DNA from: a virus
Taxonomy: Duplodnaviria > Heunggongvirae > Uroviricota > Caudoviricetes
Length of the DNA: 14,554 nt
Virus record (IMG/VR): IMGVR_UViG_3300046810_000041
Coordinates: 64,001-78,554 of that record
Direction: 5' to 3' (one strand)
Below are positions 2,835-14,554 of the stretch, one piece after another. Position 1 is the stretch's first letter. Every line of letters starts with the position of its first letter. The translations under genes were made by a program, and so were the position numbers. The notes under the pieces are model-generated. The model searched no databases. It was not told where the DNA came from and saw only the letters and a program-made list of their open reading frames with translations.

Positions 2835-5800
2835 ATGGACTACAATATTACAATCACTGATAGCGGATATGATATCCAGCTTCAGAACCAGAATCTTGAT
2901 GTAAAGATTGATCAATTAGGTCCGGCAGGCTCCGATGGTGTACTATCCCCTGATATGGTGATTCTCGGTAATACCGTGACTACCAAGGCAGGTGAAGCTG
3001 CTGTGAGTGCTACTAATGCAAAGACCTCAGAGACCAATTCGAAAACTTCTGAGACCAACTCAAAGACCTCGGAAACTAATTCGAAGACTTCTGAGACTAA
3101 CGCTTTGGCCTCTAAGAATGCAGCTGCCACAAGTGCGACTAACGCTGCAACCTCAGAAACGAATGCTCTGGCCTCTAAGAACACTGCGGTCACAAGTGCT
3201 ACTAATGCGGCTACTTCGGAAACTAACGCTTTGGCCTCTAAGAATGCTGCTGCAACCTCGGCAACGAATGCTGCTACCTCTGAAGCTAATGCTTTGGCAT
3301 CTAAGAATGCTGCGGCTGTAAGCGCAACTAACGCTGGTACTTCAGAAACTAATGCTTTAGCGTCTAAGAATGCTGCTGCAACTTCGGCAACGAATGCTTC
3401 TACTAGCGCAACTAACGCTGCAACTTCTGAAACTAATGCTTTGGCATCTAAGAATGCAGCTGCCACAAGTGCAACTAACGCAGGCACTTCTGAAACTAAT
3501 GCTTTGGCATCTAAGAATGCAGCTGCCACAAGTGCAACTCTGGCACAACAATGGGCAACCAATACTGTATCCACGGTAGATGGTACAAGCTATGGTGCTA
3601 AGAAGTACTCTACTGATGCTGCCGCTTCTGCAACTGCAGCGAATACAAGTAAGGTCAATGCAGGTACTTCTGAAACTAATGCTCTGGCCTCTAAGAATGC
3701 TGCTGCTACGAGTGCAACTAACGCTGCTACTTCCGAGACCAATGCAAAGACTTCCGAGACCAATGCAAAGACTTCCGAGACCAACGCCAAGACTTCAGAA
3801 ACTAACGCTGCAGCTTCGGCTTCCACAGCTAGTACAGCTTCGAGTAACCTGACAGCTGCTTTGGCTTCTTTCCGCGAAAAATACTTGGGCACATTCACTA
3901 CCAGCCCCACGGTTGATGGTAATGGTGCAGCTCTGAAATCTGGTGCAGAGTACTTCAATGATACTACCAATAAACTGTATGTGTATGATACAGCTTTGGG
4001 TTGGAAACCTTATGATGATGCGGCCCAGACTGCAACTACCAACGCAACCACTTCGGCCTCTCAAGCTGCGGGTAGTGCTTCGGCTGCTTCTACTTCGGCT
4101 ACTAATGCTGCAACTTCTGAGACTAATGCGCTGGCATCTAAGAATGCAGCCAAGACCTCTGAGACCAATGCAAAAACTTCTGAGACCAATGCGAAGACCT
4201 CCGAAACAAATGCTGCAACTTCCGCTACGAATGCTGCCAACTCAGCAACTGCGGCTGCTACCTCGGCTTCCAATGCTGCTGCTGCTCAAGTTAACTCGGA
4301 TTGGAATGCAACAACTGGCAAGGCTCAGATTCTGAATAAGCCTGCATTGGCTGCTGTGGCTACTTCGGGTAGTAAGGCTGATGTCGGTCTGGGAAGCGTC
4401 GAGAATAAAGCACTTTCGGACTACGGCATTGGAACAATCGGTGCAGCACCTGGTATTCTTGATCTGGACGATGTGACCATTGGTGCGGGCTTCTACTACA
4501 CTAACGCAAGCACAGTTGGAACCTGGCCTGCAGGTCTTTCTGCCGGTGGCACATTCTTGCTTCATCGTGTATTCGGTACAGCAGGTTTCCAACTCATGCA
4601 ACCTTATGGTGCCAACAATCTGTACTTCCGTAGACGTACTGGTTCTGCATGGTATCCTTGGACTGCCATCTTTAGTGAAACTTCCTTGACAAAGGTAAGT
4701 CAGCTTACTAATGATAGTAATTATCTCAAAGCAGACGGCACAGTAGCTGCAACAGCAATGCTGAATTTGGCAGCTGCAAAGTTCTGGGAAGCTAATAGTA
4801 CCGCGGGTATTGATGCTAACAATAGTGATCTTATCGGACTTAATGGGTTGTATTTCGATGACTTGGCAGATGGTACTGGTGAAGGTATTAACTTTTATCG
4901 TGATGCTACTCATTGGGATTCATTCTATGCGAACAATGGTACTCTGTACTTCGCCCCTAACCGTGTAAATGGCGCTGCTGCTTCTCCCAACGCTATTCTG
5001 CATATGGGTAACTACAACTCTTATGCTCCAAAGCTTGATGGCACAGGTGCTACTGGCAACTGGAGTATTAACTCCGCAAACGTAACTGGTGTTGTGGCAC
5101 TTGCTAACGGTGGTACAGGCGGCACTGATGCGACTTCTGCTCGTCAGAATCTGGGTGCTTATGGCTCGTTCGCGTCTATCGCGACTGGTATTGATTTGAA
5201 TACGTTGACTGCACCCGGATACTACCATCAAGGGTCTAATGCATTCGCGGCTGCTGGTGCTAACTACCCGGTTGCATTGGCTGGTGTTCTTAAGGTTCAT
5301 GCAAGCAGTGTAGGTTCGGGTGGTACATTTGTGTATCAAGAATACCATCAGTATAATAGCACCGAAGTATTTGTTCGAGCTTACTACAGCGGCGCTTGGA
5401 CAGCTTGGGCCCGAACTGTTAATACTGTTAATTTGTCAACATATGCCCTGCCAATCAGCGGCGGTACTCTGACAGGTCCAGTTACATCTAATGGTAATTT
5501 TACTATGGGTGTAGGTTACACGTTCAAACCACGTGCTCCCGCTGCTTCTGCTGCTATTACAGGGCTTACAGGTGCCCCAATCGATTACCCTGAAAGTAAC
5601 TTGGGTACTGGTGGATTTGCCGTAATGACACACCAGCCTTCTGTTGTGAACGATGGTTACCGTATGCATTTGGTAACAGGCACTTATCGTTCGGGTATCA
5701 GCAGCTATAATGGTGGATACTTCGTGGGTATGGGCGGTAACGATAATAATCCGACAGAATACTTCCTCATGAAGTTCGGTGGGGACATCACGCATAGTTC

Positions 5801-10360: not shown

Positions 10361-10373
10361 ATTGATGACTATT

Positions 10374-10402
10374 TGCGGGTTTATTAGCATCTTATATGAA
10401 AG
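10374..10402 (+). promoter_or_regulatory. Putative phage-specific promoter, copy 1 (TGCGG-N10-ATCTTATATGAAAG)
   Basis: The motif and spacing are identical to 11683-11711. It is intergenic, right after a terminator and 51 nt before the hydrolase start. Confidence 0.55.
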
Positions 10403-10453: not shown

Positions 10454-10972
10454 ATGTTATTAAGAGCTTTTCTAATTTTTATTTTGCTGTTCACGTTTCA
10501 AACAGCACATTGTGAAGTTCGATTCACACAGAAGGATGTAAGATGCCTTACTGAGACCATTTATCAGGAAGCACGTGGTGAAGGTTCTGTCGGTATGATT
10601 GCTGTGGGTCACACGGTAATAAACCGACTGAAAGCTAAATGGGCTAAAACGGTTTGTGGAATCATATACCAGAAGAATCAGTTCTCTTGGACTTCCAGCA
10701 AGTTGGCCGTGGCGTCAGAGCCAGCCGACAAGGAGGCCCGGAGGCTAGCCAGGTTGGTCGCAGTAAGGCTTTTGGAGGGTGCCCATGGTGAGGGGCTTGA
10801 CGTCACAAACGGTGCCACAGCGTTCCACTCTGCACGACTGGCGAGGCGTCCGTCCTGGACTCGAAAGTCAAAGCGCGTAGCTAAGATTGGCAATCATGTG
10901 TTTTACATCTTACCAAGTAAGGAGGATAAACGTGTTAAATCATATTCAGCGCAAACTCTTGCGAATCTTTAA
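10454..10972 (+). CDS. SleB-like cell wall hydrolase (Hydrolase_2 family) with signal peptide
   Basis: CL...IYQEARGE...G..AVG..V.NR......TVC..IYQ..QFSW, GAT.FHS, PSW and KIGNH.FY motifs; hydrophobic N-terminus ending A-H-C; SD GAGGA. Confidence 0.9.
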   Translation: MLLRAFLIFILLFTFQTAHCEVRFTQKDVRCLTETIYQEARGEGSVGMIAVGHTVINRLKAKWAKTVCGIIYQKNQFSWTSSKLAVASEPADKEARRLARLVAVRLLEGAHGEGLDVTNGATAFHSARLARRPSWTRKSKRVAKIGNHVFYILPSKEDKRVKSYSAQTLANL

Positions 10973-11682: not shown

Positions 11683-11711
11683 TGCGGAAAAAGTGGTATC
11701 TTATATGAAAG
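11683..11711 (+). promoter_or_regulatory. Putative phage-specific promoter, copy 2 (TGCGG-N10-ATCTTATATGAAAG)
   Basis: Matches 10374-10402 at all 19 motif positions with the same 10-nt spacer; intergenic. Confidence 0.55.
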
Positions 11712-11868: not shown

Positions 11869-12054
11869 ATGTATCAAGCATACAACGTAATCGCAGTTGT
11901 CGTAGAAGCACCTGTCACTGTAACTGTCCGCTGCAAGGACTGCAATACCATCTTCGGTCGTCCGCGTAAGATGTCGTTGGACGCAGCACGTCGCTTGAAA
12001 GCTCAATGGGACTTCCACCACATGGATGGTGAGTACTTCATGAGCATCGAGTAA
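11869..12054 (+). CDS. Small hypothetical protein with CxxC and HH
   Basis: 61 aa; RCKDC and FHHM; host-optimal-looking codons; preceded by the hairpin GAGTTAG-TCTT-CTAACTC (11832-11849); weak SD. Confidence 0.65.
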   Translation: MYQAYNVIAVVVEAPVTVTVRCKDCNTIFGRPRKMSLDAARRLKAQWDFHHMDGEYFMSIE

Positions 12055-12058
12055 AGTT

Positions 12059-12104
12059 TTACTCTGAGGGTATTATGAGTGCCCTCTAGGTAGCGCTTTG
12101 CTAC
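12059..12104 (+). repeat. Intergenic double-hairpin element, copy 1
   Basis: TTACTCT GAGGGTA-TTATGAG-TGCCCTC TAG GTAGC-GCTTT-GCTAC. Confidence 0.95.
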
Positions 12105-12132
12105 ATATTGTTAATTTGATAGGATACATGAA

Positions 12133-12315
12133 ATGGAACTGTTCATCATCGCTGTAATCGTAGTTGGTCTGGCAATCTTCGCTGCAGCTGTAGCAACTCA
12201 AGAGTTTAAGTGCTTCCGCAACCGTGCTAAACTCCGTGCCAAGAAAGTTGCGAAAATGAAGAAGGTCTTCAATGATCGCCGTAACCCGGACATCACTGAT
12301 GTGATCTTCAGCTAA
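12133..12315 (+). CDS. Small membrane-anchored basic protein
   Basis: SD AGGA 8 nt upstream; N-terminal TM (LFIIAVIVVGLAIFAAAVA) then a Lys/Arg-rich helix. Confidence 0.75.
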   Translation: MELFIIAVIVVGLAIFAAAVATQEFKCFRNRAKLRAKKVAKMKKVFNDRRNPDITDVIFS

Positions 12316-12318
12316 GCT

Positions 12319-12364
12319 TTACTCGAAGGGTATTATGAGTGCCCTTTAGGTAGCGCTTTGCTAC
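12319..12364 (+). repeat. Intergenic double-hairpin element, copy 2
   Basis: TTACTCG AAGGGTA-TTATGAG-TGCCCTT TAG GTAGC-GCTTT-GCTAC; 43/46 identical to copy 1. Confidence 0.95.
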
Positions 12365-12385
12365 ATAACCGTTAGGAGAAATACA

Positions 12386-12649
12386 ATGCCATTCCCAATC
12401 CTCATCCTCTGGATCTTCGGTGCAATCGCTGGTGCTTGGTCGATCCAATGGATCATCGCAGCTCTGGCTTCGAAGTACGTCCCGGTTTATCTCTTCGGGC
12501 TGTTTGCAGTATCACAGGCAACGGCAATCTTCATTGTCAAGTCTTTGATCCTGGTAGGTCTGCTGACTGTGATCTTTGCAGTCGCATTCGGTGTCTGGAT
12601 GCTGGTACGCAAGATTCGCTCGCGTAACTTCCGTCTGGGTGCAGCATGA
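12386..12649 (+). CDS. Small multi-TM membrane protein
   Basis: SD AGGAG; about 3 hydrophobic segments and a basic C-terminus (RKIRSRNFR). Confidence 0.75.
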   Translation: MPFPILILWIFGAIAGAWSIQWIIAALASKYVPVYLFGLFAVSQATAIFIVKSLILVGLLTVIFAVAFGVWMLVRKIRSRNFRLGAA

Positions 12650-12750
12650 AAGCAGCGCTGATCTTGTTCGCAGTTGGTCTGGTTGTGTTCCGTCTTCGGG
12701 TGGCATACAAGCGTAATCAATTGAAGAAACAGCAAGTCTACTACGAGTAA
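12646..12750 (+). CDS. 34-aa single-TM basic peptide (not in ORF track)
   Basis: ATGA overlap with the upstream stop; MKAALILFAVGLVVFRLRVAYKRNQLKKQQVYYE*; the stop lies immediately before repeat copy 3, as for the other copies. Confidence 0.65.
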   Translation: MKAALILFAVGLVVFRLRVAYKRNQLKKQQVYYE

Positions 12751-12754
12751 GACT

Positions 12755-12800
12755 TTACCTCGAGGGTATTATGAGTACCCTCCGTGTAGCGTCTTGCTAC
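12755..12800 (+). repeat. Intergenic double-hairpin element, copy 3
   Basis: TTACCTC GAGGGTA-TTATGAG-TACCCTC CGT GTAGC-GTCTT-GCTAC; 37/46 identical to copy 1. Confidence 0.95.
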
Positions 12801-12822
12801 TTACACTCATCATGGAGAATAC

Positions 12823-13161
12823 ATGAACACGCTGGAAATCTTGAAAGCAGCAAAAGAAAAGATTGCAACTGAAGCAACCTGGACAAACAAAGTGATTTGC
12901 CGTGATAAAGACGGTAATCCGTGTGGTAAGTTTCAGGCCGTGCAGTTCTCGTCGTTCGCAGCACTGTGGGCCGTTAACGGACATACCCTCGAAGCAATTT
13001 ATGCAGAGGTTCTTCTGCAACGGCAGATGGGTGGTGATATCTTTGAATTCGAAGACAATCACACTCATGCCGAAGTAATTCAAGCGTGGGATAAGGCGAT
13101 CGCTGAGGCAACCATTTGCCATGAGCACAACTTCATCCCGAATATGTACATTGAAATGTAA
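12823..13161 (+). CDS. Hypothetical phage protein, DUF6197-like
   Basis: SD GGAGA; the EIL.AA+E.I.....WT.....RD.DG...F....AL and I..F.D..THAEV....D.AI pattern is recalled from DUF6197-type phage proteins. Confidence 0.55.
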   Translation: MNTLEILKAAKEKIATEATWTNKVICRDKDGNPCGKFQAVQFSSFAALWAVNGHTLEAIYAEVLLQRQMGGDIFEFEDNHTHAEVIQAWDKAIAEATICHEHNFIPNMYIEM

Positions 13162-13179
13162 AATCAAAAGGAATATATC

Positions 13180-13386
13180 ATGAGCAAATTTAGCAAACTG
13201 AACACCCGTCAGAAATTCATCGCAATCGTTCTGCTTCTGGTGTTCTTCGCAGTCTTTATGATCGCTCTGCCGTTGATTGGTATTGCAATCGGAATCAGCA
13301 TCGTTGCAGGTTTGATCACCAAGATCATCCTGAAGTTCTACAAGCCGCGTCTGCGTATTTATGTGCCGCCTGCGCAGCTGAAGTAA
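13180..13386 (+). CDS. Small 2-TM membrane protein
   Basis: SD AAGGA; basic N-terminus, about 38 hydrophobic residues, basic C-terminus. Confidence 0.75.
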   Translation: MSKFSKLNTRQKFIAIVLLLVFFAVFMIALPLIGIAIGISIVAGLITKIILKFYKPRLRIYVPPAQLK

Positions 13387-13439
13387 AACAGGACGTCCTG
13401 AAAGTCCCTTCGTAGTAACCAACCCAAGGAGCAAATAGC

Positions 13440-13943
13440 ATGATCACTACCAGCACCAAACGTAGCAGCACCTTCGCAATCAGCAGCTCGATCAAGTATG
13501 GTCTGATCGTTCTTCTGATCGGTATCGCAATCGCGATCGGCAAGAGCCCGGCCTTCTTCGGGATCATCGTAATCTCGGCAGCGTACTTCAGTTATGCCCT
13601 GATTGCTTCGGCAATTGTTTCAATAGTTGCATTGGTAACTGGCTTCTTTGCAAAGAAGGAAGCCGATACCGAAGTAGGTGAAGATCTGCGTCGCTACCAG
13701 CGTCAGCAGCAACGTGATGCAGAGTCGGTTAATCCGCAACCTGCACCACAAGCAGCACCGCGTCAAGGTCCACAACCAGCGTCCCAAGTGGATGAAGAAA
13801 TTCTGGTTGATACGGACCCTGTAGCGATGGCAGCAGCAGCCCTCTCGCATCTGTCACCTGAACAGATCATGGAGCTGGTAAGTAAGTTTACAGCTGGTCA
13901 ACAACCTTCAACTGGCGGGGCGAAGGGACGTGGCAAGCAGTAA
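13440..13943 (+). CDS. Membrane protein with Gln/Pro-rich disordered C-terminal region
   Basis: SD AAGGAG; hydrophobic residues about 19-70; then RRYQRQQQR and PQPAPQAAPRQGPQP low-complexity stretches. Confidence 0.75.
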   Translation: MITTSTKRSSTFAISSSIKYGLIVLLIGIAIAIGKSPAFFGIIVISAAYFSYALIASAIVSIVALVTGFFAKKEADTEVGEDLRRYQRQQQRDAESVNPQPAPQAAPRQGPQPASQVDEEILVDTDPVAMAAAALSHLSPEQIMELVSKFTAGQQPSTGGAKGRGKQ

Positions 13944-14472
13944 TCGTAATTCCGGAGCGCAAGCACCGTCTTGGTACGCCTTCACTGATGAGTCTACTCC
14001 TGCAGCGCCTCCGCCAAGGCCTAGGAGAAACACTCATCAGGAAGGTCGTCCGCCAAGACCACCGGAACAAAGGCGATCGCCTCCGCCACCTCCGCCGCCA
14101 CGGAGTGCAAGGAAGCCGATTGCAACGGTACGCATCCCTGCCTGGTATCTTGAGGATTCCCACAAGGACCGAAGGAAGGATGCAGCGCCTGTAGAAGCCG
14201 AAGGGCGAGTACGCTTGGGGAAGCACTACGTACATTCAGTTAGACGCTTTGAACTCTACGATATAGAGATCACAGAAGTCAAGAAGTACGCAGGTCATTA
14301 CTTCAACCCAACTCTCGTAAGAGGTGTAGTTGACTTAAGCAACAACTCCTTGACGAAGTTTTATATCGCCGAGTCAGATGTGCCTGAGTTAGAAGCCCTT
14401 ATAAGGAGCGGGGGTCGTAAAGATGATTACCTCGTTGGTGGTAAGAACCCTGAGTGGTATAAAAACTTGTAG
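13930..14472 (+). CDS. Hypothetical protein with Pro/Arg-rich N-terminus and beta-rich C-terminal domain
   Basis: GTG start overlapping the upstream gene by 14 nt (start uncertain); it is the longest ORF here and ends just before the terminal hairpin. Confidence 0.6.
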   Translation: MASSNRNSGAQAPSWYAFTDESTPAAPPPRPRRNTHQEGRPPRPPEQRRSPPPPPPPRSARKPIATVRIPAWYLEDSHKDRRKDAAPVEAEGRVRLGKHYVHSVRRFELYDIEITEVKKYAGHYFNPTLVRGVVDLSNNSLTKFYIAESDVPELEALIRSGGRKDDYLVGGKNPEWYKNL

Positions 14473-14476
14473 TACG

Positions 14477-14554
14477 GATGGTCCACGCAGCGCCCACAAA
14501 TTCCCTTCCAAGGGTCTTTGTGGGCGCTGCAATCATCTTTTTTTTTTTTTTTTT
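14477..14554 (+). terminator. Long hairpin plus T17 (terminator and/or genome-end structure)
   Basis: Perfect 14-bp IR GCAGCGCCCACAAA (14487-14500) / TTTGTGGGCGCTGC (14517-14530); inner CCCT/AGGG; outer GATGGT/ATCATC; T run at 14538-14554. Confidence 0.6.

Follow-up and report, generated by a model that had tools for sequence, protein, structure and literature searches.

Repeated intercistronic RNA hairpins resembling the RNase III processing signals of T7 in an uncultured long-tailed phage

Three hairpin elements in a phage small-gene unit

The final 14.5 kb of the 78,554-bp IMG/VR record IMGVR_UViG_3300046810_000041, from a tailed phage (a stretch of 14,554 nucleotides (nt), hereafter the window, whose numbering is used for the elements), contain three copies of a short intergenic repeat, designated T1, T2 and T3. 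The analysis favours, with a probability of roughly 0.6, the reading of T1-T3 as intercistronic RNA signals in a polycistronic phage messenger RNA (mRNA), of the kind represented by the RNase III processing sites of phage T7. The sequence family of the T element is new, whereas the kind to which it is assigned, the RNase III processing signal, is well known. A first-pass annotation, made from the letters alone, had regarded the element as apparently uncharacterised; the comparisons reported below replace this description, as design and register match those of the T7 RNase III signals, and so does part of the sequence.

Copies and boundaries of the repeat

The repeat (family D7) occupies positions 12054-12107, 12314-12367 and 12750-12803, the second and third copies showing 93% and 76% identity to the first, and its 17-nt core, GGGTATTATGAGTRCCC, gives three exact matches against 0.04 expected. 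Neither a pattern search allowing up to 3 mismatches nor a covariance model run without filters found a fourth copy in the 78,554-bp genome, all three copies being confined to one 750-bp stretch of one genome.

Much of what the first-pass annotation had read from the sequence was recovered here. The three 46-nt units that it had delimited at 12059-12104, 12319-12364 and 12755-12800 are present, a recount gave the same 11 variable columns, and the three of these that fall in stems all preserve pairing, the outer G-C being replaced by A-U in copy 2 and a U.G by U-A in copy 3. Likewise, none of the copies has a U-tract, and each unit begins 3-4 nt past a stop codon and ends 21-28 nt before the next start codon. 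The conserved unit nevertheless extends 9 nt further 5' than the 46-nt unit, into the upstream gene's stop codon; in T1 and T3, the repeat takes in the preceding codon as well, the last of that gene.

Folding of the sense strand and compensatory changes

On the + strand, the minimum free energy (MFE) structure of every copy is a single hairpin of 21-22 base pairs, with energies from -24.8 to -26.4 kcal/mol and z-scores from -3.0 to -4.8. This long interrupted hairpin spans 12050-12102 in T1 (MFE -26.4 kcal/mol, z-score -3.8), 12310-12362 in T2 (-24.8 kcal/mol, with A-U as the bottom pair of the upper stem) and 12746-12798 in T3 (-25.6 kcal/mol, z-score -4.8, with U-A in place of U.G at pair 6 of the upper stem). 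It begins at the upstream stop codon and ends 30-33 nt ahead of the next start codon, its 3' end lying 2 nt inside the 46-nt unit. In T1, the base of the 8-bp lower stem includes the TAA stop codon of an open reading frame (ORF) of 61 amino acids (aa); above this stem, a 1x1 mismatch leads to a helix of 5 bp, which a 2x2 internal loop separates from the 9-bp upper stem with its AUG loop. Among the three copies, the internal loop ranges from 1x1 to 3x3. The upper stem is located at 12066-12086 in T1, 12326-12346 in T2 and 12762-12782 in T3. The fold leaves the downstream start codons and ribosome-binding sites free, and the complementary pairing of an anti-Shine-Dalgarno/Shine-Dalgarno switch with the downstream ribosome-binding site was looked for and not seen.

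The layout originally proposed for the element consisted of two consecutive hairpins, the second of which is GUAGC-N5-GCUAC (12090-12104 in T1, 12350-12364 in T2 and 12786-12800 in T3; hairpin 2). This conformer reaches only -13.6 to -16.1 kcal/mol, about 10 kcal/mol short of the stability of the long hairpin, and two substitutions that had been assigned to a loop are matched by pairing substitutions in the 5' leader. In the intact RNA, the arms of hairpin 2 are taken up by the long hairpin; since they are invariant in all copies, they carry no covariation evidence either way. Much of the invariant 7-nt loop, which had been supposed to be read by a factor, is better accounted for otherwise: four of its seven bases form a U.G pair, the one that RNase III needs in the distal box, and a U-A pair atop the stem, around a loop of 3 nt.

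Under the long-hairpin model, 97% of the cells in the three copies are paired. Double-sided changes affect three pairs (columns 10-52, 11-51 and 21-41), and a further three show one-sided, wobble-compatible changes. Columns 10-52 and 11-51 are adjacent, lie in the lower stem of T3 and join the 5' leader to the loop of hairpin 2, and the third double change is the outer G-C/A-U pair at the base of the upper stem, altered in copy 2, that the first-pass annotation had recognised. The - strand folds are weaker (-14 to -22 kcal/mol, with z-scores not significant for copy 2), the + strand folding far better because the six G.U wobbles of the long hairpin pair only on the sense strand. Folds of single-stranded DNA (ssDNA) are weak (-7.5 to -10.9 kcal/mol) and unlike between copies, which speaks against the ssDNA site that had also been entertained for the element. 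Folding energy, strand asymmetry and compensatory changes all argue for a structured RNA within the message; the earlier suggestion of a structured cis-element acting as RNA is thus supported by the + strand folding and by the pairing-preserving changes.

Comparison with the RNase III sites of T7

Ten RNase III cleavage coordinates of T7, which we take to be those of Dunn and Studier 1983, were used to define windows on the T7 sequence NC_001604, which were folded. In eight of the ten windows, the fold has 19-23 pairs at -19 to -24 kcal/mol and is divided by an internal loop into a lower stem and an upper stem of 9-13 bp. In these eight, the assumed cut positions sit on the 3' side of the loop, a result that supports the coordinates. 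T1-T3, with their 21-22 pairs and slightly lower energies, match this two-tier design. The stems had initially been judged too short for RNase III; this objection falls away, the coaxial 21-22 bp being equal to the 19-23 pairs of the T7 sites.

The likeness concerns position as well as structure. As in the T7 signals (R0.3, R0.5, R1, R1.1, R1.3, R4.7, R18.5 and others), the T elements are intercistronic, lie on the sense strand and form a repeated family within one genome; they comprise about two helical turns, with a lower stem, an internal loop and an upper stem of 9-10 bp; and their upper stem shows the RAGG...CCUY pattern, G.U wobbles and an A-U/U.G distal box in the same register. Unlike the T7 sites, the T elements have a longer lower stem (13 bp with one mismatch) and an apical loop of 3 nt, and they exist in three copies only, clustered in one operon. 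The phage that carries them is long-tailed and shares only replication and RNA polymerase (RNAP) genes with the T7 group. The copy closest to R0.3 is T2: the former reads ACTCAAGGGTATC-GCAA-GGTGCCCTTTATGATA and the latter ACTCGAAGGGTATT-ATG-AGTGCCCTTTAGGTAG, with 29 of 38 bases identical and pairs 1-8 of the upper stem the same, both U.G wobbles included.

A covariance model built from seven T7 sites was searched over both strands of the 78.5-kb genome, where T3 ranked 1st (19.3 bits, E 0.047), T2 4th (13.9 bits) and T1 5th (12.9 bits). Under the same model, the held-out T7 sites R6.5 and R3.8 scored 27.6 and 11.3 bits, respectively, the held-out R13 stayed under the reporting limit (E up to 5), which corresponds to a score below about 11 bits, and the maximum in 641 kb of unrelated phage DNA was 16.2 bits. 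The 19.3 bits of T3 lie inside the span of these held-out sites. In the reverse direction, a model of the T elements searched over the T7 genome gave R0.3 as its top match (14.3 bits, E 0.24) and R1 as its 4th. By our estimate, the reciprocal top matches fall on about 0.1-0.7% of the search space.

Fit to the RNase III recognition pattern

The target of Escherichia coli RNase III lies in an 11-bp helix (Pertzev and Nicholson, 2006; PMC1540722). In its proximal box, position 1 is G-C, position 2 is A-U or U-A, with G-C there being strongly inhibitory, position 3 is A-U, and position 4 is A-U or U-A; the middle box, of 2 bp, is tolerant; and the distal box consists of A-U followed by U.G, the latter termed a "stringent requirement" (PMC1540722). 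Internal loops limit cutting to one strand, leaving a protective 3' hairpin (PMC1540722).

The upper stem of the T elements was placed in the register of R1.1, the recognition rule being that of the E. coli enzyme, which may not be that of the host. In this alignment, pair 2 is A-U (proximal-box position 2, pb2), pair 3 is G-C (pb1), pair 7 is A-U (distal-box position 1, db1) and pair 8 is U.G (db2). All four pairs are invariant in T1-T3, and the register of pb1, pb2, db1 and db2 is the one found in R1.1 and R0.3. The upper stem carries a proximal-box-like RAGG/CCUY, and the wobble that is turned into U-A in T3, at pair 6, is the one that falls in the tolerant middle box.

Predicted processing of the message

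Long polycistronic messages are expected in this phage, since it has T7-type RNAPs and nearly all of its genes lie on one strand, the + strand. If T1-T3 are processing signals, host RNase III would bind the two-turn helix and cut on the 3' side of the internal loop, in a region that the register with T7 R1.1 would place at 12087-12090 in T1, 12347-12350 in T2 and 12783-12786 in T3. A genome search found no phage-encoded RNase III, and the host enzyme would therefore be needed. The same register predicts a cut three nt 3' of the upper stem, at about 12089/12090, 12349/12350 and 12785/12786. The upstream mRNA would retain the upper hairpin as a protective 3' end, and the downstream mRNA would start with GUAGC-N5-GCUAC, which, once released from the lower stem, would refold as a 5'-terminal stem-loop. 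The predicted 3' product does fold with a GUAGC/GCUAC terminal stem-loop, which opens the way to the speculation that the invariant hairpin 2 may serve after cleavage as a 5' stem-loop. The small genes of the unit, several of which code for hydrophobic, probably membrane, proteins, would in this way be served by small mRNAs that are separate and stabilised. The three copies would have been derived by local duplication.

Related phages and promoter-like motifs

Two promoter-like families were found in the genome. One of them, CCAACCCGTTAAATTAACCC(T), comprises six copies of an 18-21-mer distributed over 3.9 to 31.3 kb of the genome. The other is GCGG-N10-ATCTTATATGAA, whose four exact copies, each of them intergenic and on the + strand, lie at 10373-10400 and 11683-11711 of the window and at 19063-19090 and 23916-23943 of the genome. 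The copy at 11683-11711 lies just upstream of the T1-T3 unit and probably starts the transcription unit that holds the three elements. The 18-mer promoter core is shared by 117 IMG/VR stretches. Five large records among these carriers encode an RNAP 59-61% identical to that of the phage studied here, and in four of the five a (G)GTATCTTATATGA(A/T) motif, resembling GCGG-N10-ATCTTATATGAA, stands upstream of the RNAP gene. GCGG-N10-ATCTTATATGAA is a candidate second promoter family, possibly for a second RNA polymerase.

The recurrence and conservation expected of the promoters of a phage RNAP are seen for CCAACCCGTTAAATTAACCC and GCGG-N10-ATCTTATATGA, but not for the T element, which the covariance model did not detect in any of 22 related records sharing the 18-mer core, 9 of them at least 90% complete. 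One match of the T7 model in a related record was discarded as spurious, as it lies inside a 621-aa ORF, and repeats in the equivalent region of one relative proved to be coding repeats. Endolysin homologues in IMG/VR are at most 43% identical, and their loci are without the element; the one closer homologue (62%) sits on a 1.3-kb contig. Two further RNAP relatives (53-63% identity) are short fragments that lack the element, searches with the neighbouring proteins of 112 and 180 aa returned no homologues, and no cultured phage matched either the region or the element at the DNA level. The exact 19-nt core had a single match in IMG/VR, in unrelated GC-rich DNA, and six in JGI metagenome contigs, all of which were treated as chance, none sharing the flanks of the element; four of these six contigs are homologous, and the core reads through them in frame (...REGIMSALEL...), consistent with coding sequence. 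With Rfam, no match with E up to 1 was obtained anywhere in the window, and a self-cleaving ribozyme or another known Rfam family was accordingly rejected. The search by covariance model that the first-pass annotation had recommended has thus yielded neither an Rfam family nor a homologue in the 22 related records.

Weight of the evidence and alternative explanations

Several observations weigh against the assignment of T1-T3 to the RNase III processing signals. The element was found in none of the relatives searched. The E-values of both models are marginal, the scores of T1 and T2 alone are within the noise range, and the three T7-model matches amount to about one independent event. Covariation is thin, because there are only three copies and these are recent paralogues; 26 of 500 shuffles reach the observed score. 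The internal loop is smaller than that of the T7 sites and symmetric (about 4x5 in T7). Pair 1 of the upper stem (pb3) is A-U in T2 only, and the G-C found there in T1 and T3 would lower binding by E. coli RNase III. Cutting by RNase III at the T elements is itself a prediction only.

The main alternative remains a hairpin that is not cut by RNase III and acts passively, as a barrier to 3' exonucleases or a stabiliser of the mRNA, as an RNase III site that is bound but left uncut, or as the target of a different RNA-binding protein that adjusts the translation of the flanking small genes. We consider it unlikely. In its favour, the same structural evidence applies to it, RNase III might bind T1 and T3 less well because of their G-C at pb3 (PMC1540722), and the genome has many other short post-stop hairpins without a U-tract, too short for RNase III. 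A barrier, however, needs no set sequence, and yet the upper stem fits the T7 pattern, including the required U.G; furthermore, the downstream start codons and ribosome-binding sites are not sequestered. It is rather improbable that the copies are cassette boundaries, that is, short homologies at which recombination shuffles small accessory genes, a function that would be compatible with a role as RNA. The precedent would be the PeSLs of T4-type phages, which consist of a sigma-70 early promoter and a stem-loop (PMC2839356, PMC4122927) and which, like the T units, are repeated intergenic stem-loop units bracketing small variable genes. Indeed, the T copies bracket two small gene units within a cluster of orphan genes, and the inclusion of the last upstream codon and stop codon in the repeats T1 and T3 would fit such a function. 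Unlike the PeSLs, however, the T unit has no sigma-70 early promoter (a sigma-70 scan gave no fit except one 9/12 match overlapping T2), and cassette boundaries leave the strand-specific G.U pairs and the compensatory changes unexplained. Lower still is the probability that T1-T3 are remnants of a recent local duplication, without a presently selected function. Such an origin would agree with the confinement of the copies to 750 bp of one genome, and we estimate that a 14-nt invariant run is not improbable among three copies at 76-93% identity. On the other hand, only the intergenic unit repeats, the flanking ORFs showing no visible duplication, although no dedicated test was made, and neither the 97% of cells that stay paired nor the three double-compensatory pairs are what such leftovers would lead one to expect.

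A promoter role, either as a hairpin promoter for the virion RNAP fused to a head protein, by analogy with phage N4, or as a promoter for the free T7-type RNAP, is very improbable. The resemblance to the N4 promoters P1-P3 lies in the presence of three copies upstream of small genes, in an inverted repeat that can be drawn with a 3-nt loop (on a 9-bp stem, on the + strand) and in a phage that probably injects an RNA polymerase, a candidate for which is encoded in the genome. The N4 promoters form a hairpin on the template strand, with a 7-bp stem in the solved P2 complex and a purine at the centre of the loop, and have a GC-rich heptamer centred at -11, with specific contacts at -11, -10 and -8 (PMC4496689). 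In contrast, T1 and T2 have on the template strand no more than a stem of 5 bp around a loop of 11 nt, the ssDNA folds are weak (MFE -7.5 to -10.5 kcal/mol, z-score -0.8 for T2) and vary from copy to copy, and the apex of the T element is AT-rich; pairing covers about 53 nt, and compensatory pairing extends 16 nt beyond either flank of the apical stem, as far as the stop codon. Moreover, the CCAACCCGTTAAATTAACCC and GCGG-N10 families fit the two RNAPs and are kept in relatives, whereas the T element, present in 0 of 22 records, does not accompany the polymerase in related phages. The N4-like option raised by the first-pass annotation thus founders on the poor template-strand hairpin, the AT-rich apex and the absence from relatives. 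Should the T elements, contrary to these indications, be promoters or entry sites for a capsid-delivered RNAP fused to a MuF-type head protein, which we hold for a long shot, the small-gene cluster, with its several probable membrane proteins, would contain the first genes expressed, and an N4-like strategy would have evolved independently in a long-tailed phage. Two further candidates were rejected. An intrinsic terminator is excluded, as no U-tract follows any copy and only a weak pattern match was obtained at hairpin 2 of T1. A mini-ORF, in which GAGGG and, after 4 nt, AUG would open a reading frame giving MSAL and a stop in T1 and T2, runs on for about 33 codons, in another frame, in T3.

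Genomic setting and additional observations

The phage encodes a free T7-type RNAP, a DNA polymerase, a primase-helicase, an exonuclease and a ribonucleotide reductase, together with a terminase, a portal and a 1639-aa fusion of a head-morphogenesis protein with an RNA polymerase domain. According to its RNAP, the closest cultured relative is roseophage DSS3_VP1 (34% identity).

All ORFs around the T elements lie on the + strand. The 61-aa ORF upstream of T1 (11869-12054) has no PHROG match. T1 and T2 are separated by a 60-aa ORF (12133-12315) with a hydrophobic N-terminal segment, and T2 and T3 by an 87-aa ORF, entered at 12386-12750 together with a 34-aa ORF (12646-12750) that overlaps it. 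The 87-aa protein has about three hydrophobic segments, in a holin-like layout. Downstream of T3, a 112-aa ORF (12823-13161) shows a weak match to phrog_762, a family with no assigned function. None of the ORFs flanking T1-T3 gave a significant family match. From the hydrophobic segments recognised by eye, the 60-, 87- and 34-aa ORFs probably encode membrane proteins. More generally, the run of small ORFs at 12133-13943 (60, 87, 34, 68 and 167 aa), located downstream of the endolysin gene (10454-10972), shows hydrophobic segments and basic tails by eye and no significant family match. Elsewhere in the window, at 3000-4280, periodic repeats of 21 nt (7 residues) and 63 nt form a long array within a tail-fibre-like ORF of 1408 aa.

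At the end of the record, the T1-T3 unit is closed by a strong hairpin followed by a T-run. This structure belongs to a 127-bp "direct terminal repeat", in which window positions 14428-14554 are identical to genome positions 1-127; a stem of 14 bp is followed by about 17 nt of T-run, with the appearance of a strong terminator, and the hairpin sits between the small-gene unit and the RNAP gene. Because 127 is the largest k-mer length of common metagenome assemblers, the repeat may mark a circular assembly rather than physical genome ends. Directly after it, at genome positions 160-168, a host-type extended -10 promoter, TGTTATAAT, precedes a 43-aa ORF and the RNAP gene (430-2706), a placement which suggests that the host polymerase starts the programme, as in T7.

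Other hairpins were recorded along the genome. A second intercistronic family, CAGGGTGGTCTCTAACAAGGGATCACCCTT, has two copies with 97% identity (genome 9411-9446 and 16948-16983), each placed after a stop codon and ahead of the next ribosome-binding site, and post-stop hairpins opening with RAGGGT occur at genome positions 4740, 19073, 46433 and 73010. Two long non-coding stretches, at genome positions 24442-24915 and 28820-29356, contain very strong hairpins, namely a near-perfect 17-bp stem at 24821-24876 in the former and, in the latter, a 22-bp stem followed by a T-run at 28837-28896. The first of these stretches also holds a T7-model match of 14.3 bits (24733-24799). An origin of replication and a processing site are possibilities for these stretches.

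Implications

The comparison made here carries a caution for annotation, since repeated intergenic hairpins in phages with their own RNAPs should not be taken for promoters without comparative support. If T1-T3 are RNase III-type signals, a single cut at each would provide the upstream message with a 3' hairpin and the downstream message with a 5'-terminal hairpin, a prediction that is testable at base resolution. The punctuation of mRNA by host RNase III, in the style of T7, would thereby be extended to long-tailed phages of a distant, uncultured lineage that has two RNAPs, and the match of the elements down to the base pairs that E. coli RNase III reads hints at a similar specificity of the RNase III of the host.

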